64,000 nucleotides of DNA from Alteromonas sp. (GTDB taxonomy: Bacteria; Margulisbacteria; Marinamargulisbacteria; UBA6595). Where the stretch lies: NCBI GenBank assembly GCA_964220215.1, contig CAXPTH010000003.1, positions 5,246-69,245 of the forward strand, in the 5' to 3' direction. The translations under genes were made by a program, and so were the position numbers. This document shows positions 6,369 through 28,687 of the stretch, piece by piece; position 1 is the first letter of the stretch; each line of letters opens with the position of its first letter. Under the pieces are notes generated by a model. It ran no database searches and had not been told where the DNA came from. It worked only from the letters and a program-made list of their open reading frames with translations.

Positions 6369-6429
6369 TGCATTTAGTATACTGGCTTTTGGGTTAATTG
6401 GCTATGTGCGCGTGGATTTAATACGTGAA

Positions 6430-9616: not shown

Positions 9617-10332
9617 TCAGTACTCCCAACTAGGCTGCCAATTTTATGACCCAAAATAATATTTTGAATATGATTCTCTTCGGTTAGTTTAAATACAATG
9701 GTTGGAATATTATTATCCATACTCAGGGACAATGCCGTGCTGTCCATGACTTTTAACTCTTTTTGCAAAGCATCCATATAGGAAATTGATTCAAATTTTT
9801 TGGCATCGTCATATTTAACCGGGTCTTTATCATAAACCCCATTTACTTGCGTTGCTTTTAATATAACATCGGCTTTGATTTCTGCTGCACGTAAGGCGGC
9901 TGTCGTATCGGTTGTAAAGTAAGGATTCCCAGTTCCACCACAAAAAATAACCACTCGGTTTTTTTCAAAATGACGCAAGGCTCGACGCAACACAAAGGGC
10001 TCGGCAATTTCAGTCACTTCCAAGGAACTTTGCAACCGTGTGCTTACCCCACTTTTCTCTAAGGCATCTTGCAAGGCAATGCCATTCATGACAGTGGCCA
10101 ACATGCCGCTGTAATCGGCCGCAACACGATCCATGCCCTGGGCAGAGGCAGACATGCCTCTAAAAATATTGCCGCCACCAATGACGATGCCAATGTCAGC
10201 CCCGAGTTCGTGCCCTTTTTTGATTTCATTGGCAATGAACATTAAAAAATGCGGATCAATCCCATAGCTGCGGGATCCTTTGAAGGCTTCGCCACTGAGT
10301 TTGAGTAAAATTCGTTTGTAAGTTATTGACAT
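9613..10332 (-). CDS. pyrH: UMP kinase
   Basis: [11 protein letters not shown]-terminus and amino-acid-kinase fold. Confidence 0.9.
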
Positions 10333-10387
10333 GTGTTTACTAAAGTGTAGCTTGAATGTTCAAATTCATCAACGGTATGATTGATGT

Positions 10388-12846: not shown

Positions 12847-14243
12847 GTGCGCCCCTCCAATTGTATGGATGGTGTGGGCGTCTGATTGTAATTTTGATAG
12901 TTGCTGGTGTCGATGGCTTCAATCGATTGCCACGATGCCGGTAGTGGCATTGGCCCAATATTCGTATGAGTCCTGGTTAATGGTTCTGGTGGATAGGTTT
13001 TGACGGTGGCATTGTTGCGATACGCATGCTCAAATAACACGCGGGCAGACTCGTGCAAGGGGTTCTGGATAATCAGTGGTTTGAGCAGTGTCATCGCCGT
13101 GTCAAATTGGCCCATCATATACAGCGAAATAGCCTGCTCATATACTGAATGGCTATGCGCAAAGGCTTGGGCTGCTTGGGCATATTCCCCCCGTGCTTGA
13201 TGCAATTTTCCACGGTTAAACCATAGCCAATCTGGTGACGTGCCTGAGGGATCGGCCATTGTCTGGATCTGACGCATAGCCAGCGATGGGTTGTTCTGTC
13301 GCCAGGCTAGTTTGGCTTCATGATTGTGCCAGTGGCTGGGAAGTGATGCAAAGGCAGTGGTGTGCACCAGCAGTACCAGCAGTATCCAAGGCCGTGAATA
13401 CAGGAAGGGAACCAGCAACAATCCAACCCCAATAATGAGGATAGGCATGGGGTTGATGGGGGCAGGGGATGTCTGGGTGGGGCCACGCATTTGCATAATG
13501 TGTGTGTATACACGTTGGGGAATAGCTGGGGTTTTGGTGGCTTCCAAATAATGCCCCTGGGTTTGCTCAGCAATGCCCATGAGGGTGTCTCGGTTTAATT
13601 TTGATAAAATGATCGCCCCATTTTCTTTTTCAAAGCCACCGGATAATTTGGGAACCGGATCGCCATCCAGAGACCCCATGCCAATGCTGATGATGCGCAT
13701 GTTTAATTGGTTTGCATAAAATAGCATGCGGTAGGCATCGCCAGCGGTGCTGTCTCCATCACTCCAGATCACTAAAACAGGGTCGCTCGATTGGTTTAAA
13801 AACCCCCGATAGGCCGCTAAAATAGCATCAGACAATCGGCTACCGGGCCAATCATACAGTGGGGATATTGACGCAATACGTTGCTGGACACTGGCTAAAT
13901 CTTGGGTTAAGGGGCAGGTGATTCGCGCGTCGCCGGCAAACTGAATAATGCCCAGCCGGTAATTGCCCAATAGACGCGCCAATTCCGTCGCCTGTTGCTT
14001 GGCGACAGCCAGTCGATTGGGGTGTACATCTTGGGCCATCATGCTGGTTGAGCTATCAATGGCGAAGTAAATATCGGGGTGACGCAGTGGCTGTATGGGG
14101 GTGTGTGGGGGCTGAAGCGCATAGACAAGCAGCCCAATAGCGACGCAAATTAATCCCAAACACTGAGTTAATAATGGCCCCATGGGCGCCTCCATTGAAT
14201 GAATACGCTCAGAATAGCGATGCCGGCTCCGATGCCCAGGCAA
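12840..14243 (-). CDS. vWA domain plus TPR protein (BatB/BatC-like fusion)
   Basis: vWA MIDAS region (FAIDSSTSM...IIQFAGDARITCPLTQD) followed by TPR-like helices. True start is probably an internal Met (MEAPMGPLL or MGPLL). Confidence 0.55.
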   Translation of the reverse strand: MPGHRSRHRYSERIHSMEAPMGPLLTQCLGLICVAIGLLVYALQPPHTPIQPLRHPDIYFAIDSSTSMMAQDVHPNRLAVAKQQATELARLLGNYRLGIIQFAGDARITCPLTQDLASVQQRIASISPLYDWPGSRLSDAILAAYRGFLNQSSDPVLVIWSDGDSTAGDAYRMLFYANQLNMRIISIGMGSLDGDPVPKLSGGFEKENGAIILSKLNRDTLMGIAEQTQGHYLEATKTPAIPQRVYTHIMQMRGPTQTSPAPINPMPILIIGVGLLLVPFLYSRPWILLVLLVHTTAFASLPSHWHNHEAKLAWRQNNPSLAMRQIQTMADPSGTSPDWLWFNRGKLHQARGEYAQAAQAFAHSHSVYEQAISLYMMGQFDTAMTLLKPLIIQNPLHESARVLFEHAYRNNATVKTYPPEPLTRTHTNIGPMPLPASWQSIEAIDTSNYQNYNQTPTPSIQLEGRTW

Positions 14244-15553
14244 ATGAATTGAACGGATTGTTTTTGTGTGCGATACGCTAGTGTGCTTTTGGGCAATGTG
14301 AGGGCGCGAAGGGATTGCACCAGCGGGTGGGTATCGGTTGCCTTGGTGAGTGTAAACGCATGGCCTTGCGTGATATGGCTAATGGCCGTTAGTTCTGCGT
14401 CATTGCGGTAGGTGGACACAATGGTGTTGCTGGCATTGCGCCGATACAGTTGGGTATACGTTGGGTTGTCTACAATTTGATAAATGCCGTCGGGTGAGCC
14501 AAATCCAAGGGTATCAATGGCAATGTCGTACTGCTGAGCCAGTTGAGCCAGTGTTGTGGGGTTGATTGCCGTTGGGCTATCGGGCTGGGAGCCACTGCTG
14601 AGCAACACAATGCGCTTAGGGCCCGGAACGTCTTTCAATCGATGAATGGCCATGGCCAAGGCAAGCCCCACATTGGGGGGGGACCCCACGTCATTGTGGG
14701 TACGTTCCGCAATGGCTTTTTTGACGAGGCTATGATCTTGAGTCAAGGGAACAACCGTGTAGGGGTGTGCCCCCAACGCAATGAGCCCAACGCGATCATA
14801 GTGGCTGGTGTCGAGCCAGTCTTCCAGCAATAGCTGTGCGGTTTTTAATCGGTGTTGGGGTTTGAAATCAATGGTTTGCATGGCTTGGGACGTGTCTAAA
14901 ACAATCATAACGTGATAGGGCCTTTGGGTATGAATGGGTTGATCGGTGACATAAACAGGGTGGGCAAGCCCCACAACAACAATCCCCACGCCGAGACGAA
15001 AAGCCAGGGGCATTAGCATGCGAAACAGGCCGGGCAATGCCACAATATAATGCAAGGGTTTGGGGAGGCTATGCGGCTGAATGCGCCGGGCCATAATGAG
15101 GGGAAGTATGGCCAGAAGCCACAGGGGTGCGGCGAGTTGCCAATAGGTATGCGGATAGGGGGTTTGATGGGTGGTTAAAAACGTGCTGGATACTTTGGGC
15201 GTGGTTTTCTGGGTCATGGCACTAACATCGATCATTTGACTGGGAATTATGCCGCTATGGGTATTCACACTGGGAATGACACGAGCACCCAGTGAAAACG
15301 GAATTAGGGTTGCTTGGATTGTTGTTTGGTCAATATGAAGGGATTCAACATGAATACCGGTACTCAGTTGTTGGTGAATCGATGCCCAAGCATTGCTGGA
15401 TACGGGCTCTGGCATATGCACGGTGTATTCGATGGGTGTTCCGATTGTGGTATGAATGGGATAAAGGCTGACATTGGGGGTGCTGGCATGCAAAATAAGG
15501 CCGATCCCCAACAGCGTTACCCCCCGGATGATCGCCACCATTATACCCACCAT
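14168..15553 (-). CDS. vWA domain membrane protein (BatA-like)
   Basis: N-terminal TMs then vWA (HVMIVLDTSQAM...). The 3' end overlaps the next gene. Confidence 0.55.
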   Translation of the reverse strand: MVGIMVAIIRGVTLLGIGLILHASTPNVSLYPIHTTIGTPIEYTVHMPEPVSSNAWASIHQQLSTGIHVESLHIDQTTIQATLIPFSLGARVIPSVNTHSGIIPSQMIDVSAMTQKTTPKVSSTFLTTHQTPYPHTYWQLAAPLWLLAILPLIMARRIQPHSLPKPLHYIVALPGLFRMLMPLAFRLGVGIVVVGLAHPVYVTDQPIHTQRPYHVMIVLDTSQAMQTIDFKPQHRLKTAQLLLEDWLDTSHYDRVGLIALGAHPYTVVPLTQDHSLVKKAIAERTHNDVGSPPNVGLALAMAIHRLKDVPGPKRIVLLSSGSQPDSPTAINPTTLAQLAQQYDIAIDTLGFGSPDGIYQIVDNPTYTQLYRRNASNTIVSTYRNDAELTAISHITQGHAFTLTKATDTHPLVQSLRALTLPKSTLAYRTQKQSVQFICLGIGAGIAILSVFIQWRRPWGHY

Positions 15554-16065
15554 TGGGGCACCAGGTTAAGCTGCTGACAAATATAATTTAATCGCGATCG
15601 ATTCACCGATTGACTATGCTGATAGCGAGCCCGAAGATCGGCACTGTCTGCGTGAATCATGCGAGTGGTGAACCACGGCGCGTTTGGCTTGGACACGGAC
15701 TGCCATCCGGTTGTGGGGCATAGCGCATCAAATGTAAAATCAACAAACACCGGAGTAATTGAATGGCATTGACTGGCTACTTGTAAGGATGCTTGGTAAT
15801 TTGGTTCATTAAAATCCGATACAAGCCATACGGTGTGTGGCACGCGAAGGGTGTCGATCCAATGGTCTAAACAGGCCGACAGGCTCGTATACGCTTGGGT
15901 ATTGGCAATAGACGCTTGAATATCGCGATGGGTGAGTGCTGCGTAATAGTGCCCCGATACCCACAAGCGGACATCGGGCTGAGAATCATACAGCTGACAG
16001 GCAATTGCGGCAATAGCTTCATGCTGATATGCATCGGTTAATAACGGAACGATGCATGCGGGCAT
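15541..16065 (-). CDS. DUF58-like protein, C-terminal half only (possible gene remnant)
   Basis: 174 aa with the VWLVSDF motif typical of the DUF58 C-terminus. The N-terminal half and the MoxR ATPase usually preceding it are absent. Confidence 0.35.
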   Translation of the reverse strand: MPACIVPLLTDAYQHEAIAAIACQLYDSQPDVRLWVSGHYYAALTHRDIQASIANTQAYTSLSACLDHWIDTLRVPHTVWLVSDFNEPNYQASLQVASQCHSITPVFVDFTFDALCPTTGWQSVSKPNAPWFTTRMIHADSADLRARYQHSQSVNRSRLNYICQQLNLVPQWWV

Positions 16066-16074
16066 TCACGCGAC

Positions 16075-17019
16075 CTAGTTAAACAAACTGGATATAGACC
16101 GGCGTTGGTAGTTGCGTCGAATGGCTTCGGCCAATAGCGGGGCGGCTGATAGTACGGTTAACCCATCAAAGTGTTTATCAGACTCAAGCGCCATAGTATT
16201 GGTTACAATGACTTCTTTTATCGGGGCTTCAGACAACCGTTCAATGGCGGGGCCTGAAAAAACGGGGTGGGTCGCCGCCAAATACACATCGCCACAGCCG
16301 GCTGCTTTTAATGCCTCGATACCTGAAATGACCGATCCAGCCGTGTCAATCATATCATCAACCAATAAAATGGTTTTGTCTTTGACATCCCCAATCACGT
16401 TGGTAATTTTAGCCACTTGTTGTGCGGGCCGGGTTTTGTACATCATGGCTAAGGATGCATGCAAGCGATCAGCCAATCGTTTGGAAAACTTTACCCGTCC
16501 AGCATCCGGTGCCACGACGACTAAATTGGCCAATGATTTTTGATTGATATAATCCGCAATAATCGGCAAGGCCGTTAAGTGATCCACGGGTTGAGAAAAA
16601 AAGCCTTGAATTTGATCCGAATGCAGATCCATCGTAATGAGCCGATCAAACCCAATCGAGTCCAGCAAATCCGCAATCAATCGGGCTGTAATGGGCTCAC
16701 GCGGAGCGGATTTTTTGTCTTGGCGACCGTACGCAAAATGAGGCACAATTAAGTTAACCGATTTGGCCGATGCCCGTTTCAACGCATCCATTAAAATAAA
16801 CAGTTCCATATAGGCATCGTTGGGGTTATGGCCAATGGACTGCAACACAAAACAATCAAAGCCTCGGATACTTTCTTGGATTCGGGCATAGCTTTCCCCA
16901 CCACTGAATTTAAATAATTCAACCAACCCCTCTTGGATGCCCAACTGAGCGGCAATTTCTTGCGCCAGTTTGTGGTTGCTTGAACCACAAAAAAACCGCA
17001 TGTTATCCAAGGTATTCAT
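16075..17019 (-). CDS. prs: ribose-phosphate pyrophosphokinase
   Basis: DLHSDQIQGFF and PRPP-binding VVVAPDAGRVKFSKRLA motifs. Confidence 0.9.
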   Translation of the reverse strand: MNTLDNMRFFCGSSNHKLAQEIAAQLGIQEGLVELFKFSGGESYARIQESIRGFDCFVLQSIGHNPNDAYMELFILMDALKRASAKSVNLIVPHFAYGRQDKKSAPREPITARLIADLLDSIGFDRLITMDLHSDQIQGFFSQPVDHLTALPIIADYINQKSLANLVVVAPDAGRVKFSKRLADRLHASLAMMYKTRPAQQVAKITNVIGDVKDKTILLVDDMIDTAGSVISGIEALKAAGCGDVYLAATHPVFSGPAIERLSEAPIKEVIVTNTMALESDKHFDGLTVLSAAPLLAEAIRRNYQRRSISSLFN

Positions 17020-17022
17020 GGC

Positions 17023-18633
17023 TTAGGCCGTGGCTAGTACAGGGCCAGCCTGTGTGAGGGATTTGGCGATGCTAAACGATTCGTATTTTTTAAAGTTTTC
17101 AACAAATTGTTTGGCTAATTGCTCACGTTGTGCGTCAAAGGCTTGTGCATCTGCCCAGGTATTTGCCGGATTTAAAATGCTTGATTCTACGCCATTTAAT
17201 TGAGTGGGAATTGAAAAATTAAATACACCGAAGATTTCAGTGGGTGCAGACTCAATGCTGCCGTCTAAAATTGCATTAATAATGGTTCGTGTATTTTTGA
17301 GTGAGATTCGATGCCCAACCCCAAATGCACCACCGGTCCAACCGGTATTGACCAAATAGGTTCGGCTGTTGTGGGCCTTGATTTTATCCCCCAATGTTTT
17401 AGCATAAGCGGTTGGATGTAGGGTTAAAAAGGGCTTTCCAAAACACGTTGAAAACGTCGAGGTGGGTTCAGTCACGCCCAGTTCAGTACCGGGAATTTTA
17501 GCCGTATAGCCACTTAAATACTGATACATGGCCTGCTCCGTGGTGAGTTTGGATACGGGGGGCAAAACGCCATACGCATCGCACGTCAAAAAGATAATAA
17601 TTTGGGGGTGCTGGCCAACGGATCGGGGGGTTACAATGTTATCAATGTGTTCAATGGGATACGATACCCGGGTGTTTTCTGTTTTGCTACCATCGGCAAA
17701 ATCCACAACCCCATTACTATCTAAAACAACATTTTCAAGCAAGGCATTGCGGCGAATGGCACGGTAAATATCGGGCTCTTTTTCCTCAGATAAATCAATT
17801 GTTTTAGCGTAACAACCGCCTTCAAAATTAAAAATACCATCGTCGTCCCATCCATGCTCGTCATCCCCAATTAATTTTCGATCCGGGGAGGCAGACAGCG
17901 TTGTTTTCCCGGTTCCGGATAACCCAAAGAACAAAGCGGTATCGCCAGCACTGCCTTGGTTAGCCGAACAATGCAAGGCGGCAATGTCTTGCAGGGGCAA
18001 GAAGTAGTTCATAATACTAAACATGCCTTTTTTAATTTCTCCACCGTACCAGGTATTGCCAATAATTGTTTGGCGTTCTTGGATATTAAACGCAATATAG
18101 GTTTCAGACCGAATGCCCAACTCGTCATAATTGTCGCACTTGGTTTTGCAGGCATTTAAAATGGTCCAGTCGGGAGAGAAATTGGCTTTTTCAGCGTCCG
18201 TAGGCTCAATAAACATGTTTTTGAAAAAATGGGCCATCCACGCAACTTCAGTCACCAATCGAACGGCCAATCGGGTATTGGGGTTTGCACCACAAAATCC
18301 GTCCATAATGTATAGGGTTTTTCCGTTGAGTTGATCCGTTGATAGGGTTTTTAAGGCGTCCCAACTTTCAGGCAATAGGGGTTGGTTATCGGAGCCTTCG
18401 GCTTTCCACCAAATCGTATCTTTGGTGGTGTCATCGTATACAATGTATTTGTCTTTGGCGGATCGGCCTGTAAATTCGCCGGTGTCGACAGCAACGGCTC
18501 CGGTTTGGGTTACGGTGCCTTTTTCAAAGCCTGAAGCGGCCGTTTCATGCTCAAACAATGCATCATAGCTTAAATTAACATGCAGGTCAGACGCCTGAAT
18601 GTTTAGTGTCTTCAATTCGGATTCAATACTCAT
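17023..18633 (-). CDS. pckA: phosphoenolpyruvate carboxykinase (ATP)
   Basis: 536 aa; [13 protein letters not shown] kinase-1a loop and ATP-type PckA N-terminus. Confidence 0.9.
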
Positions 18634-18724
18634 ACTTTATACTCCTTCAATAAATAAAAATCTATTGTTCTCTAGTATAACGATGGGAGGTCCGATGCGT
18701 CAAAATTAATACAAAAAAATCGTT

Positions 18725-19792
18725 TTAAATGCTAGCGTGTAGCCGATCCAGATCCGCTTGGTCTTTGACGGGTTGAAATCGACTGCGCGGAACCTGAACA
18801 ATGGTGACGTTGGTCATGGCTTGGATGGCAGACCCCATGGCGGACTCCAGTTGAATAATCGGGGTGCCGGCTCGATTTTTTGGGTTGGCAATGCATTGCG
18901 TTAGCCCTATGGGCTTGAGCGTTTTAAGATAGGGAATGGATAGCCACAATGAGTTGGTGTTAAACAATGGCAACGCATTAAACAGGGCTTGGGTATGGGT
19001 ATCCGATGCCTGAATATTGCCGCGCTCCAGCAGGGTGATAGTCCCTGCGTGGCGAACGAAGCCTCCGCCTTTTTTATCCGCTTCGGTTTTAGGCGTTGCT
19101 TCGACCAAAGCATGCAGCCCATGCTCACGCATGTAACACACAAAGCGTGGGTCCCAGGTGGCGGCTAAATTATCGGAATTGGAAATAAACACGTACTCGT
19201 ACCCATTGGCGAGCCATTGATCTAAAATGCCAGTATCGTGAAACACTGAAAAAATATCCCCATGACCGGGAGGTGCCCAAGAATCCGCTTCGCTAGCGGC
19301 TGAATGATAGGGGGTTACTGGCTGTGTGTCTGTGTTTAAGCATGGCCATCGATTTTGAATTAAGGCAGGAATGCCGTGCGCGTCTAGGTGCTTGACGCAA
19401 CCTGGGTGGGTGTAAAAACTGTTGAGTAGCCATAGGTGTGTGTGCGGGCAGTTGGCATTTTGTTCAATAATAATGTCTAGAAAGGATCGGTGGCGCTTTG
19501 GGTCTGCAATGACCAGGCATTTGGGGCCTTGGCAGCCGAGTGTTGTGGCAAGGCCGCCGTTGAGTTTTAAGACAATCGTTTTGGGTGGGTTTTGCGTGTC
19601 GGTTAGCTGGGATAGGGCGATGGTGTCTGTGGGGTGCAGGGACTCAACATCACCAATACAATGGGGTTGCATGCAGTGTCCATCGGGATTGAGTTGGTTT
19701 AGGAATGATTGAAAGATAGCATGGCTGGTGGGGCGGTCGGGGCTATCGTTTTGCAGTTGATTTAAAAAGGGCTGATGCCAATCCTGGGTCAT
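18725..19792 (-). CDS. UDP-sugar pyrophosphorylase of the eukaryotic UDPGP family (UGPase/UAP-like)
   Basis: VLKLNGGLATTLGCQGPK matches the UDPGP nucleotide-binding signature (LNGGLGTxMG). 4-nt overlap with upstream crcB. Confidence 0.7.
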   Translation of the reverse strand: MTQDWHQPFLNQLQNDSPDRPTSHAIFQSFLNQLNPDGHCMQPHCIGDVESLHPTDTIALSQLTDTQNPPKTIVLKLNGGLATTLGCQGPKCLVIADPKRHRSFLDIIIEQNANCPHTHLWLLNSFYTHPGCVKHLDAHGIPALIQNRWPCLNTDTQPVTPYHSAASEADSWAPPGHGDIFSVFHDTGILDQWLANGYEYVFISNSDNLAATWDPRFVCYMREHGLHALVEATPKTEADKKGGGFVRHAGTITLLERGNIQASDTHTQALFNALPLFNTNSLWLSIPYLKTLKPIGLTQCIANPKNRAGTPIIQLESAMGSAIQAMTNVTIVQVPRSRFQPVKDQADLDRLHASI

Positions 19793-20124
19793 TTAACGAT
19801 CCAGTATCCCAAGGCTGTTGCCAGTATGCCGCCAAAGACATTGCCCATCATGTAAAGCAAGGCGGTGCCGTAGGCGCCAGCATGAATAAGAACGAGGCTG
19901 TCTTTTGAAAAGGTTGAAAATGTGCTAAACGCACCGAGAAATCCAACGGATAGCCAAGCGATAGTGGGTGTGTTGATGGACTCAGATAGTCCGTATAGGC
20001 ACCCGATTAAACTGCAGGCGACAAGATTAATCCCCCACGTGGTCCAATGGCTGTATACCCAACAATACAGCCCATACCGTGCCAATGTGCCCAGAACGCC
20101 ACCCACTGCTATCCCAATAATCAT
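19789..20124 (-). CDS. crcB: fluoride channel CrcB
   Basis: 111-aa four-TM protein with GxxGxxxR-type CrcB N-terminus (GGVLGTLARY). Confidence 0.8.
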   Translation of the reverse strand: MIIGIAVGGVLGTLARYGLYCWVYSHWTTWGINLVACSLIGCLYGLSESINTPTIAWLSVGFLGAFSTFSTFSKDSLVLIHAGAYGTALLYMMGNVFGGILATALGYWIVK

Positions 20125-20219
20125 TGATGTTGACTATAGCACTTTTAAGGGGTTTCGGCTACTTGGTAGCGATTGGTAGTGCTTTGCGATTGAATTATTT
20201 AGGGTTATATTTAGGTAAA

Positions 20220-23200
20220 TTATTTCTTATCAAGATGATCTAGACTTATTACCTTCGTACAATCTTTTTCTGCTTTTAAAGGAGGGAAAGAACTGTCTAC
20301 TGCTGCTGCTCGTGCTTCTGGAGACTCCTCTAATGCTTGTATCACTTTTTCAAAATATATCATATTGATATGGAAATCGTTGCCTTTTATATTGAACGTC
20401 GAGTTATATAAATACTTTTTATACATATTAAAACGAAAATATGGATAAATATTTAATTCTTTCTTAATTTTTTCTAGTTCGCTTTTAAAACTCTCTGGTA
20501 AATTTTGAATAGCTATTGCTTCATCCAGGTTTTCTAATACTTGTTTTTTTGTTGTTATATGATTGAAGTTATCTATATTAAGGAAAAAACTATCATTAGT
20601 TTTTATATTTTTATTTAGTATCTCGCTTGCAGATATCACTGCTTCTGCTCGTGCTTCTGCTCGTGCTTCTGCTTTTGCTTCTGCTCGTGCTTCTGCTGCT
20701 GCTTCTACTCGTTTTGCTGCTCGTGCTTCTTCTGCTTCTGCTGCTGCTAGTGCTGCTACTGGTGCTGCATCTGATTCTACTGATGCTGCATCTGATTCTA
20801 CTGCTGCTGCTGCTCGTGCTTCTGCTATTTTAATTGAACTCATTTCAACGCCTACACTGAAAAAATTAGAAATTAGATATGACAATGAGTTATTAGAAAC
20901 GCTCTTGTTAATAAAATAATCAAGTACTAACAACGGAATAACTGGAACAAATGTAGCCAGTGATTTTTTATATTTATGATCGGGGTATTTTGAACTAATT
21001 ATAGAAATTAAAATCTGTGCTAGAGCAGCTAAACCAGGGGCTATAAAACTAGGGGCTATATTAAGGTTATCAGAAATAGAAGCAGGTATTAGACTCACCT
21101 CATCAAGACAATTCAAAATAAGTCTGACTAGAGGAGGTGCTTCATAGTCAAACTGCCTCAAGATATCGATTCCTAAACGACCAAATACGCTAATAAGTAT
21201 TAGTGCAAAAGCTATGTATCCTAAAAGATCTTTTTGATATTTTATATCTTGAATATTGGTTTTTAGTCTACTGAGCAAAGCTGTTTTTTCTTGAGGACTA
21301 AGATTATCCAATTTATCTCTTAATTCTTTATCACTAATTAAATCAAGAAGAGCCGTAAAGGCCTTCTCATTTTCATAACTTAATCGACGACCAGAGGGGG
21401 TATGCGAATCGAGTGCACGCAAAAGCTTGTCTATGCTGTCCGTTTTTGGAAGCCGATAAAGCTCCATAACATTTTTGTTTTTAATTATATCTATTAATTC
21501 TTCATCTGTGAAAGACAAGGTTATTGATGTGCCTGTTGTTGTGTCAATCACGGTGACGACGGTGCTAGTGGTTCTGGTTGCTGTGTTGGTTGTGGAAACA
21601 ATGGTGGCGGTGGTGGTGCCTGTTGTTGATAGGGTTGTGGTTGTGGTGGTGGTGGATGTCTTACTTGTGGTGCTTGAGGTTGACGTGGGCGATGTGGTGG
21701 TGGATGTTGCTGTCGTTGTTGAGGTTGCTGATATGCCTGTTGTTGTGTCAGTCACGGTGGTAGTGGCGGTGGTGTTTCCGGTTGCTGTGTTGGTTGTGGT
21801 CACGGTGGTGGTGGTGGTGGTGGGTGTTGTTGATAGGGTTGTGGTTGTGGTGGTGGTGGGTGTAGTCGTGGTGGTGCTTGAGCTTGATGTGGTTGATGTG
21901 GTGGGCGTTGTTGTCGTTGTTGAGGTTGTTGATGTGCTTGTTGTTGTGTCAGTCACGGTGGTAGTGGCGGTGGTGGTTCCGGTTGCTGTGTTGGTTGTGG
22001 TCACGGTGGTGGTGGTGGTGGTGGGTGTTGTTGATAGGGTTGTGGTTGTGGTGGTGGTGGGTGTAGTCGTGGTGGTTGACGTGGGCGATGTGGTGGATGT
22101 TGTTGTCGTTGTTGAGGTTGTTGATGTGCCTGTTGTTGTGTCAGTCACGGTGGTAGTGGCGGTGGCGGTTGTGGTGCCTGTTGTTGATGTACTTGTTTCT
22201 GTTACTGTTTTTGTTGTCGATGTTGGTGTGATCGTTGTTGTGGTGGTTGATGTTGATGTTGATGTTTTTGATGTTGTTGTGATTGTTAATGATGTGGTGG
22301 TACCTGTGCTTGGTGAAGTTGTTAGCGTGACCGATGTTGTGAATGCACACTGAATAGCGGCATCGAAATTTTCATTCGTATCCAAGCAATTTGCAATATG
22401 TTTTTCGCTCAAGTCAAGCTGGCCACCTTGGCCATCATCTAAAATAGCATTTACAGCCTGTTCAATGTTATTTGAAATTTCTCCAAGTTTAGCTAAAATA
22501 ATTTGTTTTATATTATTGTATTGTGCATTGTTTAAATCGTTTGCGTTATAAATTCCCCATGCTAACCATTGTGCAGCAGCGTCTGCAGTACCAGATACTT
22601 TTGCCTGATCAACAGCATATTGCCAATTTGATGAACTTTTTTGCCCGGATCCTCTGAGATTACCTATTTTACTCGTAGTTTTAGGTCTGGTGCTTGATCC
22701 ATCTGCACGTGAACCTGTTGCTGGCACTATTCCCATAAAACCTGATGGCTGTGCGTCTGCAGTAGTTGCTGCCATAAGTAGAGTAGCGATTCGTAAAATA
22801 CTAATAGCAGCTGAACTACCAGCTCTCCTGTTTCTACTTCTCTTAGCATCTTTCTGCTCTTCCCAGGCAAATTTAACGCTATGTATAGTATCTTCAAACA
22901 CTGGTTCTTGATACAGATTGTCTATCATGTTGGCTGTGTTGATGTTTTCTAATAACTCCGTTATCGATTCTTTATTACAGGTATAGTGAGTCACCGTGTC
23001 GTTATCAAATTCAAATAACACTGGAGGGTTATTGTTGAATTCTTTTAGTTCAGCGATGCTTTTTTCAATATCTGTCTGTAATTCTTTACTTTTTTTTGCA
23101 GTGCTCTTTAAATGCTCCAAACACGTGATTGTCTTTCTGTAATTATCTAAGTTTGTTAGAAATCGTTTTGCTTGACTAATTGATTTCTGTACTTCTAATG

Positions 23201-24299
23201 AACTTTCAATACAATTAATCGGATTGGCAAATAATTGGTTTGGATTGTTTTTATGGTTATTTAAGTTTTCGTTGAATATCGTTGTGTCAATAGTTTTAGC
23301 TTCTTTTTTTAATTCGGCGATTGTTTCAAATTGACCGATTGAATCATTTAGCCAACTTACTGCTCGTTCCAACTCAGGAGTAACAGACGCTGAATTGAGC
23401 AAGTGTTCTAATAAAGTATTGTTTGTTATGTTTGCTAACTGGTTTTTTAGGTCCTCATTAATAACGCCATCTTTTTTTAATGCCTTAAGTCGTTGAGGAA
23501 AATTACTTAGTGTGGTGTAGTGTTGAGTCAATAACTTAGCATTCAAAGCAATGGTGTCTACAGTGGCCTTAGTTAGTGGTTTTTCAGAAGAAAGAGCCTC
23601 ATGAATAGTGGTTAAAATTTTGTTTTGAATCGCTGAGTGTTTTGTCTGAAGGGTTTCATCCAATACTTGGGTGAGTTCTGTAAGCCTATTGAGTAAGTTG
23701 TTGGGATCACTTGATTTCAGATTTTCTATTTTTTTACAAATAACCTTAATTGTTTCAGAATCGCTATCCTTATGCTTGTCTAGAACAAATTGTATATAGT
23801 GTTTGGATACTTCTTGCTTGATTTTGGTTGCTTGTTGGCTAATCTGACAAATGTTTTCTTTTTTAGTTAGAACGGCATCCAATTCATTAAGCGTATTACT
23901 TAGTTCTGTGCTTTTTTTATTTATTTCTTTGTTTAAATAGCACGCTGTGCTTAAGTTAAGCAGCAATTGTGATTTTGTTAAAATTTTCCCTGGTAGCTGG
24001 TTGTCATTTTGATTGTTTCTGGATTGGTTTATTTGCTCATTTATAATATTTTTTAGTTTAATTAATTGTTGTGGACAGTCTTTCCCGAGTTTAACCATGA
24101 TTTCGTAAGATTTTATATTAAACTGATAAGCCTCTTGAATTTTTTGATTGGTAGGAGTGACTGGATTAGGCCCCCATGCTGGTATAGGGGAGGTCTGACT
24201 TTTTGTAAATGGTTTTGTTTTCACGCCATTTTTCGTTTGGCTTGATGCTAATCTAGCTGATGCTGGTCTAGCTGATAATTTTTGTATTTTTGTTGTCAT
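20220..24299 (-). CDS. giant coiled-coil / mucin-like Thr-Pro-rich repeat protein with C-terminal hydrophobic segments and an (EARA)n tract
   Basis: 1359-aa ORF. The N-terminal ~480 aa are Asn/Lys/Leu-rich and coiled-coil-like. A central ~330-aa run is almost pure Thr/Ser/Pro in ~64-67-aa repeats. The C-terminus has three hydrophobic helices and AEARAEAKAEARAEARAEA. The DNA is visibly AT-rich relative to its neighbours. Confidence 0.7.
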   Translation of the reverse strand: MTTKIQKLSARPASARLASSQTKNGVKTKPFTKSQTSPIPAWGPNPVTPTNQKIQEAYQFNIKSYEIMVKLGKDCPQQLIKLKNIINEQINQSRNNQNDNQLPGKILTKSQLLLNLSTACYLNKEINKKSTELSNTLNELDAVLTKKENICQISQQATKIKQEVSKHYIQFVLDKHKDSDSETIKVICKKIENLKSSDPNNLLNRLTELTQVLDETLQTKHSAIQNKILTTIHEALSSEKPLTKATVDTIALNAKLLTQHYTTLSNFPQRLKALKKDGVINEDLKNQLANITNNTLLEHLLNSASVTPELERAVSWLNDSIGQFETIAELKKEAKTIDTTIFNENLNNHKNNPNQLFANPINCIESSLEVQKSISQAKRFLTNLDNYRKTITCLEHLKSTAKKSKELQTDIEKSIAELKEFNNNPPVLFEFDNDTVTHYTCNKESITELLENINTANMIDNLYQEPVFEDTIHSVKFAWEEQKDAKRSRNRRAGSSAAISILRIATLLMAATTADAQPSGFMGIVPATGSRADGSSTRPKTTSKIGNLRGSGQKSSSNWQYAVDQAKVSGTADAAAQWLAWGIYNANDLNNAQYNNIKQIILAKLGEISNNIEQAVNAILDDGQGGQLDLSEKHIANCLDTNENFDAAIQCAFTTSVTLTTSPSTGTTTSLTITTTSKTSTSTSTTTTTITPTSTTKTVTETSTSTTGTTTATATTTVTDTTTGTSTTSTTTTTSTTSPTSTTTTTPTTTTTTTLSTTPTTTTTTVTTTNTATGTTTATTTVTDTTTSTSTTSTTTTTPTTSTTSSSSTTTTTPTTTTTTTLSTTPTTTTTTVTTTNTATGNTTATTTVTDTTTGISATSTTTATSTTTSPTSTSSTTSKTSTTTTTTTLSTTGTTTATIVSTTNTATRTTSTVVTVIDTTTGTSITLSFTDEELIDIIKNKNVMELYRLPKTDSIDKLLRALDSHTPSGRRLSYENEKAFTALLDLISDKELRDKLDNLSPQEKTALLSRLKTNIQDIKYQKDLLGYIAFALILISVFGRLGIDILRQFDYEAPPLVRLILNCLDEVSLIPASISDNLNIAPSFIAPGLAALAQILISIISSKYPDHKYKKSLATFVPVIPLLVLDYFINKSVSNNSLSYLISNFFSVGVEMSSIKIAEARAAAAVESDAASVESDAAPVAALAAAEAEEARAAKRVEAAAEARAEAKAEARAEARAEAVISASEILNKNIKTNDSFFLNIDNFNHITTKKQVLENLDEAIAIQNLPESFKSELEKIKKELNIYPYFRFNMYKKYLYNSTFNIKGNDFHINMIYFEKVIQALEESPEARAAAVDSSFPPLKAEKDCTKVISLDHLDKK
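20640..20830. repeat. 12-bp simple sequence repeat (gcttctgctcgt)n encoding (EARA)n, plus a duplicated ESDAASV unit
   Basis: Read directly: gcttctgctcgtgcttctgctcgtgcttctgcttttgcttctgctcgt... Confidence 0.8.
21480..22350. repeat. intragenic tandem repeat, about four copies of a 192-201-bp unit encoding the Thr-rich module
   Basis: The unit tgttgttgtgtcagtcacggtggtagtggcggtgg... recurs at about 21738, 21939 and 22131, with a diverged copy near 21534. Confidence 0.8.
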
Positions 24300-24329
24300 A
24301 TATCTCCCCTTTCTTGATTCTTAATTTCT

Positions 24330-25265
24330 TTAAAATGTTATGCCTGCAAACACGGTGCCAACGAGGGTTCGTTCTTTGGTTAGTCGTTTCCGACCATATT
24401 CATCTACGGATAGCTCCCCTGGATTTTCTTGAAATCTGGCTTGCGTGCCAATTAGTATCGAATTTATGCTGAGCATAGCCCCCAATTCGCCATATACTGA
24501 TACTTGATTATTGGTGTAATAGAATTGCCGGGGTTGAACAATAAGATCTTCCCTCTTGATATTATCGATATCATTCACAATAGATTCAATTAGATTTTGT
24601 CTTGGTAACGTGTAGTTTTTCCCATAAATGCTGGCTGTGCTAATCACGAGCCCTCCGCCAATGTACAGATCAAATTGGGTATTGTATGCGTGTTTGGCGT
24701 ACAGTGATTTGCGCACTCCCAACCGGCCGGCGTGGATGTATTTGCTGCTACCACTGTTGGATAAGTTAAATATTTCGGTTAGGTTACTTGTGTCCCGGAA
24801 AGCATACATATTCGCATCAATAGCTATATATATAACTGGCATCTTTATGGTAACCCCTGGACGATATTCATGAACAACGGTATGCCCGTATCCGGCGACA
24901 ACCCATAGTTGAGGGCTTAGCCATTGCCGGCTAATTTCAATGCCTTGTTCATACCCAAACCGTTTGCTTGGTTTTAGGCTTACTGTGTAATTTGTATTTT
25001 CATTTCCATTAATATAGTATTCCTCAACCGATTTAGCTGGCGGTTGACTGCTTTGGTATGGCCCGGGTCCCAGGGGTAGACCACCATATAGTCGTACTTG
25101 CCACATGCCCCAGTTGGGTTTTCGAGTCTGTTTATTGTGTGTCGTGTTTACTTCATCCGTAGCGTTTTCGTGAATGTTGTAATGCAGCTCGGCAAATCCA
25201 TTGGTTGTGTATAAACCGATGAATACAGCGATGATAAATTTAGTGTGCAAGTTTAGTTTTTTCAT
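24330..25265 (-). CDS. outer-membrane beta-barrel protein (signal peptide, C-terminal Phe)
   Basis: MKKLNLHTKFIIAVFIGLYTTNGFA signal peptide, alternating amphipathic strands, terminal ...FAGITF. Confidence 0.55.
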   Translation of the reverse strand: MKKLNLHTKFIIAVFIGLYTTNGFAELHYNIHENATDEVNTTHNKQTRKPNWGMWQVRLYGGLPLGPGPYQSSQPPAKSVEEYYINGNENTNYTVSLKPSKRFGYEQGIEISRQWLSPQLWVVAGYGHTVVHEYRPGVTIKMPVIYIAIDANMYAFRDTSNLTEIFNLSNSGSSKYIHAGRLGVRKSLYAKHAYNTQFDLYIGGGLVISTASIYGKNYTLPRQNLIESIVNDIDNIKREDLIVQPRQFYYTNNQVSVYGELGAMLSINSILIGTQARFQENPGELSVDEYGRKRLTKERTLVGTVFAGITF

Positions 25266-25325: not shown

Positions 25326-25455
25326 TTTATGTGTTTCTCTGTTTTATTTTTAAAAACACAACTTAAATTATAATAAAATTCGATACAAATGTCAACAATT
25401 TATTTTAAAAATGGATTAATTTGTGTCAAAAATAGAGGGGCGGTTTGGGTGTTGA

Positions 25456-26505
25456 TTAGAGATAGTTGTCTGGGTGGGGGATGGGTAGATTTAGATGGGG
25501 GTATCGATCCGTGAGTGATCGGGCAAAATGGTAGTCAAGTTCTTGAATAGACTGGGGCAGTGGGTATAAGTGCCCATAGTGCATGGCGGTGTAGTGGGGG
25601 CCTTCTCCAAAAAACCGTTGCCACATGTCCCAGCGTTCCATACAGAAGTAAATGAGGGTTTCTGGCTTCAGGTATCGGTAAAGATCGGCCAAAATATGGG
25701 CATACATCTGGTTTCGAATGGGTTTTGGGTATCGCAATTTGCCATCATCCCCCAGTACCATTTCAGCGGCAGTGAGTGAAGACGTTGGAAAATTGCTTTC
25801 CATTTTCTTTTTCATTTCGGGTTTGAATCGCAAGGAGCCAATGGATAGCCAGGCTAATCGATCGGGTTGAATGTGTGCAAACAATTGATCCACTAAATCG
25901 GTGTATTCGGCTTCCCAGTTATCATGAATAATCATGGGGTCAATGTGCACGCCCACCAGGTAGCCGGCATCGTAAACCGCTTTCATGGCGGCCAATCGAT
26001 CCGCTAGTCGCGCGGTTTTATGTTCTTCGGCATTCACTACGGCATGGGTGTTTAGCGACCAAGACACAACGGTTTTTTGCCCGTGATCTAGGGTTAAAAT
26101 GGGGGCGACTACATCGGATTTTGTTTTTAGCTCCAGTAAGGCATTGGGGATATCTCGAAATCGCTCAATGAGCGCCGCCGCTTGACCGGTTTGAACCTCC
26201 AATGCGAGGCTGTCGCCCAGTTCCCAGGTGCCAATTCGAAAGAGCCGGTTGGGTTCTCGATCCACTTTTTCGTGGACATTGGCCATGATGGCGTCAATGT
26301 CTTGAATGACTTTGGTGTTGCCGTCGTTGAGGTAGTCTTGTAAAAAACAGTAGCTGCAATCAAAGGGGCAATTGCTTACGGTTTTAATAACTTGAACATT
26401 GCAGCATACATATTTGTTGCTAATGGTGGCACAGGTGTCCATGACATCGCCTTTTTTGGGGATATATTGGATCTTCGCTTTGCCGTCGCGATAGTATCGG
26501 CTCAT
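25456..26505 (-). CDS. radical SAM enzyme of the spore-photoproduct-lyase (SPL/COG1533) family
   Basis: CPFDCSYC (CxxxCxxC) radical SAM cluster motif near the N-terminus; 349 aa; overall SPL-like arrangement. Confidence 0.7.
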   Translation of the reverse strand: MSRYYRDGKAKIQYIPKKGDVMDTCATISNKYVCCNVQVIKTVSNCPFDCSYCFLQDYLNDGNTKVIQDIDAIMANVHEKVDREPNRLFRIGTWELGDSLALEVQTGQAAALIERFRDIPNALLELKTKSDVVAPILTLDHGQKTVVSWSLNTHAVVNAEEHKTARLADRLAAMKAVYDAGYLVGVHIDPMIIHDNWEAEYTDLVDQLFAHIQPDRLAWLSIGSLRFKPEMKKKMESNFPTSSLTAAEMVLGDDGKLRYPKPIRNQMYAHILADLYRYLKPETLIYFCMERWDMWQRFFGEGPHYTAMHYGHLYPLPQSIQELDYHFARSLTDRYPHLNLPIPHPDNYL

Positions 26506-27416
26506 AGCAATGCCATCATACTGGATACTACGGGTTCAGCCTTTTGAAGTTGTTGGCTTAAGTGGTTGAGTTCGTGCGGGTCTCTGAGTGTGCAATGCAG
26601 GGCCAATTGGCGATTTTCCAAGCTATGGTCCCACTGAATTTGAATGCCGTCAGGTGCGGTTTGAGATAGTTGGGTTAGCTGGGCATTGACGGTATGCACG
26701 GTGGGTTGGACTTGGTTGCTTAGATGCTGAATTAATGCGGAAGCTCCCTGGGTCTTGAGAATGTGCTGCGTGTCTGGCTCAGCAAGGATGGCGGATGCGG
26801 GTGTATTGTGACGTTTAGATAAGTCATGCAATTGATCGGCAATGCGAAGCCAATTGCTGCTGGATACGTGTACAGACGCAACGACTGTTTCTAGAGTATG
26901 CAAGAGCTCTTGGGTATAGGAAGCCAGTCGCAAGCACACGGCAAAACTTAGGGCGTGTTGGTGGCAGCGGGTTTGAATTGTTTGGGGTAGCTGAGCGATT
27001 TTTTTACTGTGAACGAGCAGTGCGTTGTAATGCTGAAGGCCCAAGGGGGCGCAGTGGTCGGCCAATGAGGCCGTCGTGGATTTCCAGTTTAATAAAAACA
27101 AGACTTTTTGCATCACTGAACGGTTTAGTTTTTCTGCGTGGGCCTCGAGCATGAGCGTGTATTGCTCAAATTCAGACGCGGGTATTAGGCTGGCCAGGAT
27201 ATGCGTGCTGGGGCAGTGTGTTAAGCGTTGGTAGCCGTCTAGTAGCGTATAGCCATCTGCGGTAGGGGTTACCCATATGGGCGATAGGATTCCGGTTTGA
27301 TGCATTGACTGAACCAACGATTCGCGTGGTGGCGTGGCTAGATGTTTGGGGAAGCTGGATTCGTAGTCTGTGATGTTAATGTCTGCAATCGCAATAGTGG
27401 TTTGGCGTATTCCCAT
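26502..27416 (-). CDS. ParB/Sulfiredoxin-like N-terminal domain protein with helical C-terminal region
   Basis: ILSPIWVTPTADGYTLLDGYQRL resembles the ParB/Srx core (DGxxR). Its stop overlaps the SPL start (ATGA). Confidence 0.5.
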   Translation of the reverse strand: MGIRQTTIAIADINITDYESSFPKHLATPPRESLVQSMHQTGILSPIWVTPTADGYTLLDGYQRLTHCPSTHILASLIPASEFEQYTLMLEAHAEKLNRSVMQKVLFLLNWKSTTASLADHCAPLGLQHYNALLVHSKKIAQLPQTIQTRCHQHALSFAVCLRLASYTQELLHTLETVVASVHVSSSNWLRIADQLHDLSKRHNTPASAILAEPDTQHILKTQGASALIQHLSNQVQPTVHTVNAQLTQLSQTAPDGIQIQWDHSLENRQLALHCTLRDPHELNHLSQQLQKAEPVVSSMMALL

Positions 27417-27528: not shown

Positions 27529-28242
27529 ATGACAAACATATCCAGATGTAATGCCCGTCAATACCATGCATTATCGACACAAGGTAGTATTCCGCCTGCT
27601 CTGGCGGTAGTGATAGAAGAAGAAAAAAATATGCTTTGCTAAAGGCTTTGGAATACGTTCAATCTAGCGGAAAATACTTGGCTCATCTCCCACAGTTTGC
27701 AGATAATAAAGACGTTGTTATGGCTGCGATTAATCAGAATCCGGTAGCAATTCATTGGGCAGATAGTAGTCTTAAAGAAGATCCAGAAATTGCGTCTATG
27801 GCTCTCAATAAGGAACCCAAAACCTTGGAGTTTTTGCCTGATAGTATAAAAAATAACAAGGAATTAGTGCTGGAAGCGGTTCAAAAATTCGGCTTAGTTT
27901 TTCGGCTTAGTTTTAGAGTACGCATCGGATGCGCTGAAAGATGATTCAGACGTAGTTGAAGCCGCTGTGAAAAGTTCTTGGGAATCATTTTTATTTGCAT
28001 CTGATCGATTGAAGCAGTCTGGGCATATTCGTGCGGCTTCAGGCAAGGAAGATAGATTTCTAAACCGTTTGAAGTGCGTTCACTCAACAATAAGTGGGCG
28101 AATTAGATTGCAACCAATTACTTTTTTTGATGATCGTTGTGAAGCTTCTGATAAAATCCGTATTGTTTTGTCTGATTCTAATGATGAAAATATGAAAAAT
28201 TGTTGGGGTTTACAATGGCTATTAAACTTTCCTTGCCAATAA
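27529..28242 (+). pseudogene. DUF4116 (eukaryote-like repeat) gene disrupted by two frameshifts
   Basis: Strong SD (aagaggag) then ATG at 27529. The frame is lost at the A7 run (27623-27629). It resumes as KALEYVQSSGKYLAHLPQFADNKDVVMAAINQNPVAIHWADSSLKEDPEIASMALNKEPKTLEFLPDSIKNNKELVLEAVQKFGL, is lost again at a 13-bp tandem duplication, then continues as LEYASDALKDDSDVVEAAVKSSWESFLFASDRLKQ. These are DUF4116 repeats. Confidence 0.6.
27888..27913. repeat. perfect 13-bp tandem duplication (ttcggcttagttt x2) causing a frameshift in the DUF4116 gene
   Basis: Read directly. Removing one copy restores ...AVQKFGLVLEYASDALKDD... Confidence 0.85.
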
Positions 28243-28536
28243 CTCGGCAGCTAATCCCCCTCGATAGCATTGCGTTAGGTGGACGTATTTTTCAGCCCAT
28301 TGCAAATGGGTATCATAGTTCCCCTGGACTGTTTTTACATAGCGTCCGGGAACGCCCACCCACAATTCATTGGGGCCGACTCGGGTGTTTTCTTTGATCA
28401 CAGTTCCGGCGCCAATCGTGACCGACTCCCCAATAACCACGCACCGATTATTATCCCCAATAATATCCGCACTGGGCGCCACCCAGGCCGATTCATGAAT
28501 CCGTGGGGATTGACTGGGGATGACCATGCATGGCAA
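28222..28536 (-). CDS. hexapeptide-repeat (gamma-carbonic-anhydrase/YrdA-like) protein, internally shortened, possibly inactive
   Basis: N-terminus (ESAWVAPSADIIGD) and C-terminus (VVIGESVTIGAGTVIKENTRVGPNELWVGVPGRYVKTVQGNYDTHLQWAEKYVHL) are gamma-CA-like. About 60 central residues, including the His ligands, are missing. Confidence 0.45.
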   Translation of the reverse strand: MPCMVIPSQSPRIHESAWVAPSADIIGDNNRCVVIGESVTIGAGTVIKENTRVGPNELWVGVPGRYVKTVQGNYDTHLQWAEKYVHLTQCYRGGLAAELLARKV

Positions 28537-28687
28537 TCGTGATTTTATTCTGGAAGCGGTGAAGCAGAATGGGGATGCGTTGCAGTTTGCGAGTGAGGAA
28601 GTGCGTGGTGATCGTGATATGGTGAAGGCAGCGGTGTGGGATTGTGAAAATGCGGTTCGGTATGTGAGGTGGTATAGTACTCAATGA
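28526..28687 (+). pseudogene. orphan DUF4116 repeat fragment (53 codons)
   Basis: MHGNRDFILEAVKQNGDALQFASEEVRGDRDMVKAAVWDCENAVRYV is one DUF4116 repeat. It lies on the far side of the inverse hexapeptide gene from the main DUF4116 pseudogene. Confidence 0.45.

Follow-up and report, generated by a model that had tools for sequence, protein, structure and literature searches.

Contig CAXPTH010000003.1 derives from a planktonic member of the marine Marinamargulisbacteria, an uncultured sister lineage of the Cyanobacteria whose envelope and lifestyle are little known. The window analysed here is a 64-kb stretch of this contig, taken as a whole, and it contains a single uninterrupted open reading frame (ORF) of 1359 amino acids (aa) at positions 20220-24299 on the minus strand, referred to below as the giant gene. 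Together with an outer-membrane protein (OMP) gene located just upstream, the giant gene is predicted to form a conserved two-gene operon unit, and the pair appears to be a new, fast-evolving envelope module in a poorly known phylum, for which the mechanism described below is a proposal. The chance of finding 1359 stop-free codons at the composition of this ORF is ~4e-41. The GC content of the ORF is 0.381 and its GC content at third codon positions (GC3) is 0.297, which are the lowest values among the 51 ORFs of the window (means of 0.460±0.036 and 0.460±0.060, respectively). The initial annotation, which was made from the letters of the window, described the ORF as AT-rich at both ends, and the composition bears this out, with GC of 0.334 and GC3 of 0.30 for aa 1-480 and GC of 0.341 and GC3 of 0.19 for aa 929-1359. 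The Thr-rich middle has a GC of 0.515 because it is built of ACN Thr codons.

All parts of the giant gene are encoded on the minus strand. The N-terminus (aa 1-50, 24150-24299) is basic, rich in Pro, Thr, Ser, and Gln, predicted to be unstructured, and does not contain a hydrophobic signal. It is followed by an all-helical domain (aa 51-485, 22845-24149) that is rich in Asn, Lys, and Leu, in which invariant blocks alternate with fast-changing patches, and which is probably cytoplasmic. The N-terminal part contains 13% Leu, 11% Asn, and 11% Lys, in agreement with the initial annotation, as is the lack of an N-terminal signal peptide. The domain features an alpha-helical amphipathic periodicity, and a single-sequence AlphaFold2 (AF2) model of aa 1-690 shows helices of 20-40 residues with loops between them at a predicted local distance difference test score (pLDDT) of 38.7. 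Strong heptad periodicity is found in only 3% of the 28-aa windows, a level reached by 13 of 200 shuffled sequences, so the giant coiled coil that had been proposed is not supported.

A conserved internal segment that resembles a signal peptide or signal anchor, overlooked in the initial annotation, is present at aa 486-516 (22752-22844). It consists of a basic n-region (KRSRNRR), a hydrophobic core of 13-15 residues with a hydropathy peak at aa 493-511, and an A514-x-A516 motif (A514-D-A516) followed by Q/N-P, so that the putative cleavage site in the window reads ADA|QP. The pattern of n-region, h-region, and AxA-(Q/N)P is kept in the alleles of the window and of the relatives L007 and L016, and it is duplicated in L015. 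The following segment (aa 517-652, 22344-22751) comprises a Gly/Ser/Thr-rich linker and a small helical domain in which Cys residues are conserved, and is presumed to be exported.

The mucin-like tract (aa 653-927, 21519-22343) consists of 63% Thr, 14% Ser, and 3% Pro. Tandem Repeats Finder detects a 201-nucleotide (nt) repeat at 21518-22170 with 3.3 copies and an 88% match, and motifs in the tract are spaced by 64, 67, or 68 aa. The repeats described earlier are thus real, but the tract measures 275 aa and not more than 300. Its length differs among orthologues (223 aa in L016), and the metagenome contigs that carry near-identical copies of the gene end inside the repeat. The juxtamembrane region (aa 928-1023, 21231-21518) is helical (SFTDEEL...) according to alignment A1 and the low-confidence AF2 secondary structure. 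The hydrophobic domain (aa 1024-1158, 20826-21230) features three strong and one or two weaker helices, with strong peaks at aa 1029-1047, 1084-1102, and 1113-1131 and a weaker peak at aa 1057-1075. It is the best-conserved part of the protein and contains long invariant runs across homologues with only 55-64% overall identity. The AF2 model of the C-terminal module, obtained from a 4-sequence alignment, has a pLDDT of 39.9. The hydrophobic domain is followed by a low-complexity helix rich in Ala, Glu, and Arg(Lys), the (EARA)n tract (aa 1159-1220, 20640-20825), which has a GC3 of ~0.12 and differs in length and sequence among orthologues. The three close hydrophobic helices and the (EARA)n tract had both been recognized in the initial annotation, and the weaker helices are additional. 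The C-terminal domain (aa 1221-1359 and the stop codon, 20220-20639) is helical, rich in Asn, Lys, Phe, and Ile, has a GC of 0.22-0.32, and contains motifs that are conserved in A1. Two plus-strand ORFs overlap the gene and were rejected as genes: a Val-rich ORF of 292 aa at 21475-22353 is the antisense shadow of the Thr-rich tract, and an Ala/Ser-rich ORF of 118 aa at 20563-20919 is that of the Ala/Glu/Arg-rich tract.

The OMP gene (24330-25265, minus strand) encodes a 311-aa protein in which a signal peptide is followed by a predicted beta-barrel, with ...AGITF as its last residues. It had been described as AT-rich; the gene is indeed present, but it is only mildly AT-rich (GC 0.425, GC3 0.41). 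The protein has a beta periodicity of 0.59 versus 0.47±0.07 in shuffles, is rich in Gly and Tyr, contains no Cys, and has a terminal Phe. Eight homologues were found, and those with a source name belong to Marinamargulisbacteria; one relative comes from a Tara surface fraction of 0.45-0.8 µm. Between strains the OMP features two hypervariable patches, and its last 45 residues are nearly invariant. Four long homologues (P0010-P0013, 517-544 aa) carry ~230 extra N-terminal residues, which give borderline matches to the surface-layer homology (SLH) domain (17-21 bits at a cut-off of 20.8, E 2.5e-4 to 5e-3) followed by a Pro/Thr/Glu linker. The window OMP has no Pfam match to SLH (PF00395), and in the alignment it lacks both the SLH region and the linker entirely, so it is a putative barrel-only short form of this OmpM-like family. 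No sequence match was found between the OMP and the solved OmpM/SlpA chains or the PDB. OmpM consists of an SLH domain and a barrel, and homologues have been reported in Margulisbacteria (bioRxiv 10.1101/2021.05.31.446380). In the long homologues of the partner, a signal peptide precedes an SLH-like motif and a Pro/Thr/Glu linker, and the C-terminal region is barrel-like with a final Phe, a layout shared with OmpM/SlpA (PMC10628300). The 311-aa window OMP, by contrast, does not have the SLH region, and the long forms match SLH only at borderline scores. An ORF in the relative L002 (9150-9611, minus strand), located in the short interval between a hexapeptide-repeat gene and crcB, encodes 153 aa with a signal peptide and a C-terminal Phe; it was also considered and is unrelated to the OMP (BLASTP E 0.17).

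The two genes are separated by a 30-nt intergenic spacer (24300-24329), which contains a ribosome binding site, AGGGGAG, at 24304-24310 before the ATG of the giant gene. The gap is 28-30 nt in the window, L015, and L016, and the giant gene is always second. A sigma-70 consensus TTGACA-17-TATAAT is located at 25367-25395 on the minus strand, ~100 nt upstream of the OMP gene, and is the probable promoter of the operon. It is the sole perfect match to this consensus within the window, where 0.07 would be expected by chance. A perfect consensus is also located upstream of the OMP gene in L006-L008 and upstream of the long OmpM-like genes in L020 (9852-9880) and L021 (7376-7404), and the retention of this promoter suggests that the OMP is a major one that is very strongly expressed. 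The long OmpM-like genes of L020 and L021 precede, at a distance of 18 nt, a gene of >515 aa, in which the contigs end. The arrangement of an OMP gene followed by a large gene with gaps of 18-30 nt is therefore found in five lineages, namely the window, L015, and L016, with a positional analogue in L020 and L021. The downstream gene of L020 and L021 resembles the N-terminal half of the giant protein in having a disordered start, a helical stretch of ~400 residues, and, near aa 470-490, a hydrophobic segment. The L020 protein was, however, rejected as a homologue since it has no detectable similarity to the giant protein (hhalign probability 1.3%).

On the other side, the giant gene is flanked by crcB and a UDP-sugar pyrophosphorylase gene (UDPGP; PF01704, E 1.8e-72), as the initial annotation had stated. 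Upstream of the OMP gene, the window carries genes for a ParB_N-like protein (304 aa) and a radical SAM protein that resembles spore photoproduct lyase (SPL; 349 aa), which overlap by 4 nt (25456-27416, minus strand). This pair has a genome-typical GC. L007 and L016 likewise carry it directly before the OMP gene, whereas L015 and L020 do not.

Searches with the giant protein and the alignments A1 and A2 against Pfam, NCBIfam, PHROGs, PADLOC, and PDB sequences yielded no significant match. Neither the protein nor its L016 orthologue has a significant Pfam match or an SLH match, and a TolA/TonB profile match is absent from the protein in Pfam and NCBIfam. A word-indexed search of 5.8 billion proteins with aa 1-653 found nothing, and this negative is weak because the search missed true orthologues that were found later via the neighbouring gene. 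The same search with a C-terminal query found three proteins, and an exhaustive HMMER search of 1.84 billion representatives with the C-terminal alignment found four. A scan of GTDB genomes with the giant protein and two scans of viral contigs gave no match. Altogether only about six relatives of the protein came to light among the 1.84 billion representatives. Every one that can be placed belongs to the Marinamargulisbacteria clade, and the family thus appears to be tiny and restricted to this clade, yet it extends beyond this one strain.

Among the relatives, L003-L005, L009, and L012 carry near-identical copies of the giant gene, and L006-L008 carry a sister-strain allele. L013 and L014 contain the C-terminal halves directly upstream of crcB and UDPGP. 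L016 contains a complete 1383-aa orthologue in the same gene order as the window (ParB-like, SPL, OMP, giant gene, UDPGP, pckA, and prs). The orthologue in L015 lies in a different neighbourhood, after MiaB, MnmA, MetX, MetW, and UbiA and amid DUF4116 genes. It is split (9300-10060) by a single in-frame stop in the Thr-rich repeat, which reads PTTT*TSST where the next unit reads PTTTSTSST. Either the copy became a pseudogene very recently, or the stop is an error of sequencing or assembly in the repeat. Two related genomes were recovered via the UDPGP gene: L001, a Caspian Sea metagenome-assembled genome with 95% DNA identity over 9887-20166 of the window, and L002, the bacterium UBP8_UBA6595. 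UBP8 corresponds to Marinamargulisbacteria (bioRxiv 10.1101/568287).

The giant gene evolves far faster than its surroundings. The ratio of nonsynonymous to synonymous divergence (dN/dS) versus L016 is 1.22 (68.5% aa identity), compared to 0.03-0.16 for flanking and core genes (91-99% aa identity) and 0.42 for the OMP. Versus the sister strain L007 the ratio is 1.69 (87.6% aa identity), compared to 0.57 for the OMP and, at 98.7-99.4% aa identity, 0.20 for the ParB-like gene and 0.56 for SPL, where the SPL value reflects only two nonsynonymous changes and one synonymous change. Versus L015 the N-terminal part has a ratio of 1.25 and the C-terminal part 0.96, with 0.06-0.13 for flanking and core genes and 0.34 for the OMP. 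The amino acids of the giant protein change about 10 times faster than those of its neighbours. In the comparison with L007, identical patches alternate with divergent ones as in a mosaic. Variation is lowest in the membrane domain, which has the lowest dN of the gene (0.117), and in aa 61-350, while dN is highest at aa 481-654 and aa 1151-1359, which are predicted to be exported. The most variable part is aa 517-652, with dN of 0.39-0.63 and dN/dS of 1.4-2.0, and dN/dS in aa 51-485 ranges from 0.9 to 2.4. Change of a diversifying or relaxed kind is thus concentrated outside the membrane segments, in an ORF that is kept open.

A dN/dS of ~1 over most of the length, the low GC3, the in-frame stop in the L015 copy, and the decay of neighbouring genes in the window (DUF4116 and hexapeptide-repeat remnants) would also be compatible with a functionless ORF that is drifting neutrally towards an AT-rich composition. 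Comparison with L016 shows that the giant gene has no stop codons, where 25.2±4.7 are expected if the 677 nucleotide differences are placed randomly, and none of 2000 such runs was stop-free. Additionally, all 20 of the 20 indels outside of the Thr-rich tract are in frame. The lack of stops and the in-frame indels indicate that the ORF is kept open by selection and is not decaying, and this test largely refutes neutral decay. The invariant blocks, the conserved cysteines, the strongly conserved membrane domain, the consensus promoter and ribosome binding site, and the intact ORFs of 1359 and 1383 aa in separate lineages further make decay highly improbable.

As to its origin, the gene was initially annotated as likely horizontally acquired. 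A gene of recent foreign origin that sits on a genomic island, comes from an AT-rich donor, and serves a function unrelated to the resident envelope would account for the lowest GC and GC3 of the window. Several features of the locus also point in this direction. The interval between crcB and a hexapeptide-repeat gene is ~8 kb in the window and ~0.5 kb in L002. The similarity between the window and L001 (1-7046), elsewhere 95% identical, ends at 20166 in the intergenic region upstream of crcB, with xth-nth-recN-glmS located there instead, although the contig name of L001 gives a coverage of 0.06 and the assembly may be chimeric. The giant gene is missing at this site in the rearranged L001 and in the distant L002, and the module is placed elsewhere in L015, so the locus lies in a rearrangement-prone region. 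The divergence at four-fold degenerate sites versus L015 is 0.15-0.25 for the OMP and giant genes and 0.45-0.53 for adjacent core genes, which is 2-3 times lower for the module. This low divergence suggests that alleles of the module may move between related lineages, and it hints at an exchange of OMP-giant alleles among them.

Other evidence stands against a recent acquisition. A low GC3 is found in all orthologues (0.277 in L016; 0.30 and 0.22 in L015), and the positional analogue in L020 has a GC3 of 0.324 versus 0.45-0.58 in its neighbours. The synteny is the same in L016, L013, and L014, where the neighbouring genes are 91-99% identical. The low GC3 shared by orthologues and the common synteny argue against recent import. 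The dS of the giant gene versus L016 is 0.17, which is similar to the flanks. No tRNA, integrase, Rfam element, flanking direct repeat, or inverted repeat was found at the locus, no phage-family match was found for the protein, and it has no relatives among the viral contigs or homologues outside of the clade. A recent foreign origin is therefore improbable, and horizontal acquisition as a recent event was not borne out. The simplest reading is a clade-level gene in which weak codon constraint allows the composition to approach an AT-biased mutational equilibrium. A diversity-generating retroelement or insertion sequence was considered as well and was rejected, since there is no template/variable repeat pair and there are no inverted or flanking direct repeats.

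The hexapeptide-repeat gene itself (28222-28536, minus strand) belongs to the LbH, gamma-carbonic-anhydrase-like type and has been cut to 104 aa by two internal deletions. Its counterpart in UBA6595 is 183 aa long (L002, 8582-9133), and the remnant in the window marks the far edge of the ~8-kb variable segment. A conserved stretch at 28277-28515, which was considered as an RNA gene or integration site, proved to be part of this truncated gene.

The reading that is favoured, tentatively and at somewhat less than an even chance, is that the giant protein is a lineage-restricted, inner-membrane-anchored envelope protein with an exported mucin-like spacer that shares its transcript with an SLH-less OmpM-family barrel. 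Rapid amino acid change in a gene that nonetheless remains intact speaks for an envelope protein under diversifying selection and against a recently imported effector. The lifestyle fits as well, since a relative of the OMP comes from the small Tara surface fraction and oceanic Marinamargulisbacteria are predicted to be aerobic heterotrophs (PMC6349859). The helical N-terminal domain of ~485 residues would remain in the cytoplasm, and export would begin at the internal signal or anchor at aa 486-516, so that aa 517-1023, including the 275-aa Thr-rich tract, would be located outside of the inner membrane. The tract would act as an extended and probably O-glycosylated spacer. The chain would then be re-anchored by the hydrophobic bundle at aa 1024-1158, giving an N-in topology with five passes, for which the basic loops at aa 486-492, ~1048-1056, and 1103-1112 match the positive-inside rule. 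Via the Ala/Glu/Arg helix, the C-terminal domain would reach into the periplasm in the direction of the barrel, in the manner of TolA or Omp-alpha stalks, and the protein as a whole would form a long spacer or tether that associates with the barrel. Exposure to phages, bacteriocins, grazers, or a host may place diversifying selection on the parts outside of the membrane, which recombination would reshuffle, and the lasting AT-rich codons would reflect weak codon constraint in a fast-evolving gene and no foreign origin. What the sequences show directly is the operon pairing, the pattern of conservation, the rates of evolution, and the retention of the open frame; the topology, the glycosylation, the contact with the barrel, and the selecting agent are what we infer from these features. 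The surface or cell-envelope location given in the initial annotation is supported indirectly by the operon with a barrel, the internal export signal or anchor, the membrane domain, and the mucin-like tract. That annotation had also held that its proposal of an acquired, effector-like protein would fail if the homologues were ordinary envelope proteins widely conserved in the lineage, and this is in part what is found.

Several points weigh against this envelope-tether assignment. The AF2 models are unusable (pLDDT 39.9 and 38.7) and there is no profile or PDB match. It is unusual for a signal peptide to be preceded by a 485-residue domain, and the topology therefore depends only on hydropathy and charge. 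If both ends are held in the inner membrane the Thr-rich loop is periplasmic, and selection by external agents is then harder to explain. The fold of the partner barrel is deduced from sequence features, and the pairing in L020 and L021, being one of position and architecture with no detectable sequence similarity, is only suggestive of a deep association. Furthermore, the dN/dS values were calculated with the Nei-Gojobori method (NG86) and may be inflated under biased codon usage, although the four-fold-site divergence from L016 (0.119) is also below the dN (0.21).

A second explanation is an external coat or fibril. The chain would be cleaved at A516|Q517 and the Thr-rich glycoprotein would pass through or onto the barrel, where it would serve as a variable mask of phage receptors that shields the cell. 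The conservation of the AxA site, the mucin-like composition with a variable repeat length, the hypervariable loops of the partner OMP, and the pattern of diversifying selection all fit such a coat. The conserved C-terminal hydrophobic helices, however, favour retention in the membrane, and the partner barrel is small (~260 residues). No known export route fits either, since the giant protein and the OMP have no Pfam match and therefore no domain of a two-partner secretion, autotransporter, or RTX-type type I secretion substrate. A coat is considered unlikely.

Among known systems, TolA/TonB-type proteins work together with outer-membrane proteins, and phages and bacteriocins exploit them. They resemble the giant protein in having a membrane anchor followed by a low-complexity helix or spacer rich in Ala, Glu, Lys, and Arg and a small C-terminal domain. 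The giant protein differs from them in that it has no profile match, is much larger, and features the Thr-rich tract and an extra domain that is probably cytoplasmic. The Omp-alpha/Omp-beta system of Thermotogae (PMC10160955) also features a barrel-only OMP gene beside a gene for a long, mostly alpha-helical rod or spacer of the envelope, with a spacer sequence that diverges fast while its architecture is kept, and both systems occur in diderm Terrabacteria. Omp-alpha, unlike the giant protein, has a mass of ~45 kDa, an N-terminal SLH domain, and a true coiled coil of 45-50 nm (PMC10160955). The giant protein has 1359 aa, no SLH match, and a weak heptad signal, with the Thr-rich tract replacing the coiled-coil rod; it also contains an internal signal and a multi-helix membrane domain, and the barrel comes first in the gene order. 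The likeness to Omp-alpha/Omp-beta and to TolA stalks would thus be functional only, with the giant protein belonging to neither family. Mucin-like Thr/Ser/Pro linkers share with the tract a content of ~80% Thr, Ser, and Pro, tandem repeats, and a variable copy number, but the tract is flanked by membrane segments and not by catalytic or binding modules, and is only putatively glycosylated.

The initial annotation likened the protein to eukaryote-like effectors and to the inclusion-membrane-type proteins of intracellular bacteria. As a translocated effector of the chlamydial inclusion membrane protein (Inc) type, the protein would use its disordered N-terminus as a secretion signal and insert its helices into a host membrane, with the soluble domains facing the host cytosol and evolving in an arms race. 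Like the Inc proteins and eukaryote-like effectors, the giant protein is an orphan that evolves fast (dN/dS at or above 1), does not have a classical signal peptide at its N-terminus, and combines helical soluble domains with a cluster of hydrophobic helices. It differs from Inc proteins in that there is no homology, it has 3-5 helices versus a bilobed pair, and it features an internal Sec-type signal and an OMP operon; the Marinamargulisbacteria, moreover, are a lineage without a demonstrated type III secretion system. The homologues that had been suggested in Legionella, Chlamydiae, and amoeba symbionts were not found in the 5.8-billion word-indexed or the 1.84-billion HMMER searches, and this holds for any effector-bearing lineage known and searched. 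No secretion system is seen in the DNA that was examined (the 64 kb and fragments of relatives), and the tight, conserved operon with a barrel and the internal Sec-type signal suit a cell-envelope protein better. Relatives are also found in the 0.45-0.8 µm planktonic fraction.

Two observations point towards a host. One member of the Marinamargulisbacteria lives as a symbiont inside the cells of Trichoplax (bioRxiv 10.1101/568287), and in L007 and L015 the module is adjoined by genes of a eukaryote-like character, encoding ubiquitin and DUF4116 or DUF4116 and nSTAND3, of which the window keeps remnants. In L007 these are a 443-aa protein with a ubiquitin domain (E 8e-11) and 8 DUF4116 repeats (E 2.6e-138) at 5107-6438 and a 237-aa DUF4116 protein at 3343-4056, both on the minus strand. 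The minus strand of L015 carries a 418-aa DUF4116 gene at 4440-5696, a 1315-aa DUF4116 protein with a faint nSTAND3 match at 11975-15922, and a 270-aa ubiquitin and DUF4116 protein at 16241-17053. In the window only broken DUF4116 remnants are found, at 27636-27944, 27967-28242, and 28520-28687 on the plus strand. A bacterial protein with a ubiquitin domain hints at an interaction with eukaryotes, and the location of such genes near the module in sister genomes keeps the effector explanation alive. The linkage to DUF4116 is, however, inconsistent, since it is absent in L016 and decayed in the window, and an effector is considered quite unlikely. A broader proposal is distinctly doubtful: the barrel and the giant protein would constitute an undescribed envelope-spanning apparatus of Marinamargulisbacteria that is positively selected via contact with a eukaryotic host and that, together with the ubiquitin-DUF4116 and nSTAND3-DUF4116 genes, marks an association with protists or animals.

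If the envelope-tether assignment holds, the locus provides a concrete and probably highly expressed two-gene envelope module that consists of a barrel-only OmpM relative and a giant orphan spacer protein, and it bears on outer-membrane tethering in diderm Terrabacteria. As one of the fastest-evolving loci of these genomes, the module may serve as a natural marker by which to follow the arms races of strains with phages, grazers, or hosts. With ubiquitin and DUF4116 genes next to the module, it can also be asked whether pelagic members, like their relative Ruthmannia in Trichoplax, interact with eukaryotes.

Two other features were noted away from the module. The window encodes a 1104-aa polytopic membrane protein at 47518-50832 on the minus strand, which has no Pfam match at E<=0.1 and contains many hydrophobic helices. 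In L015 part of the coding sequence for the UbiA/MenA prenyltransferase is duplicated at 5602-5952, beside the 418-aa DUF4116 gene, and this duplicate looks like the scar of an insertion or duplication at the ubiA end.

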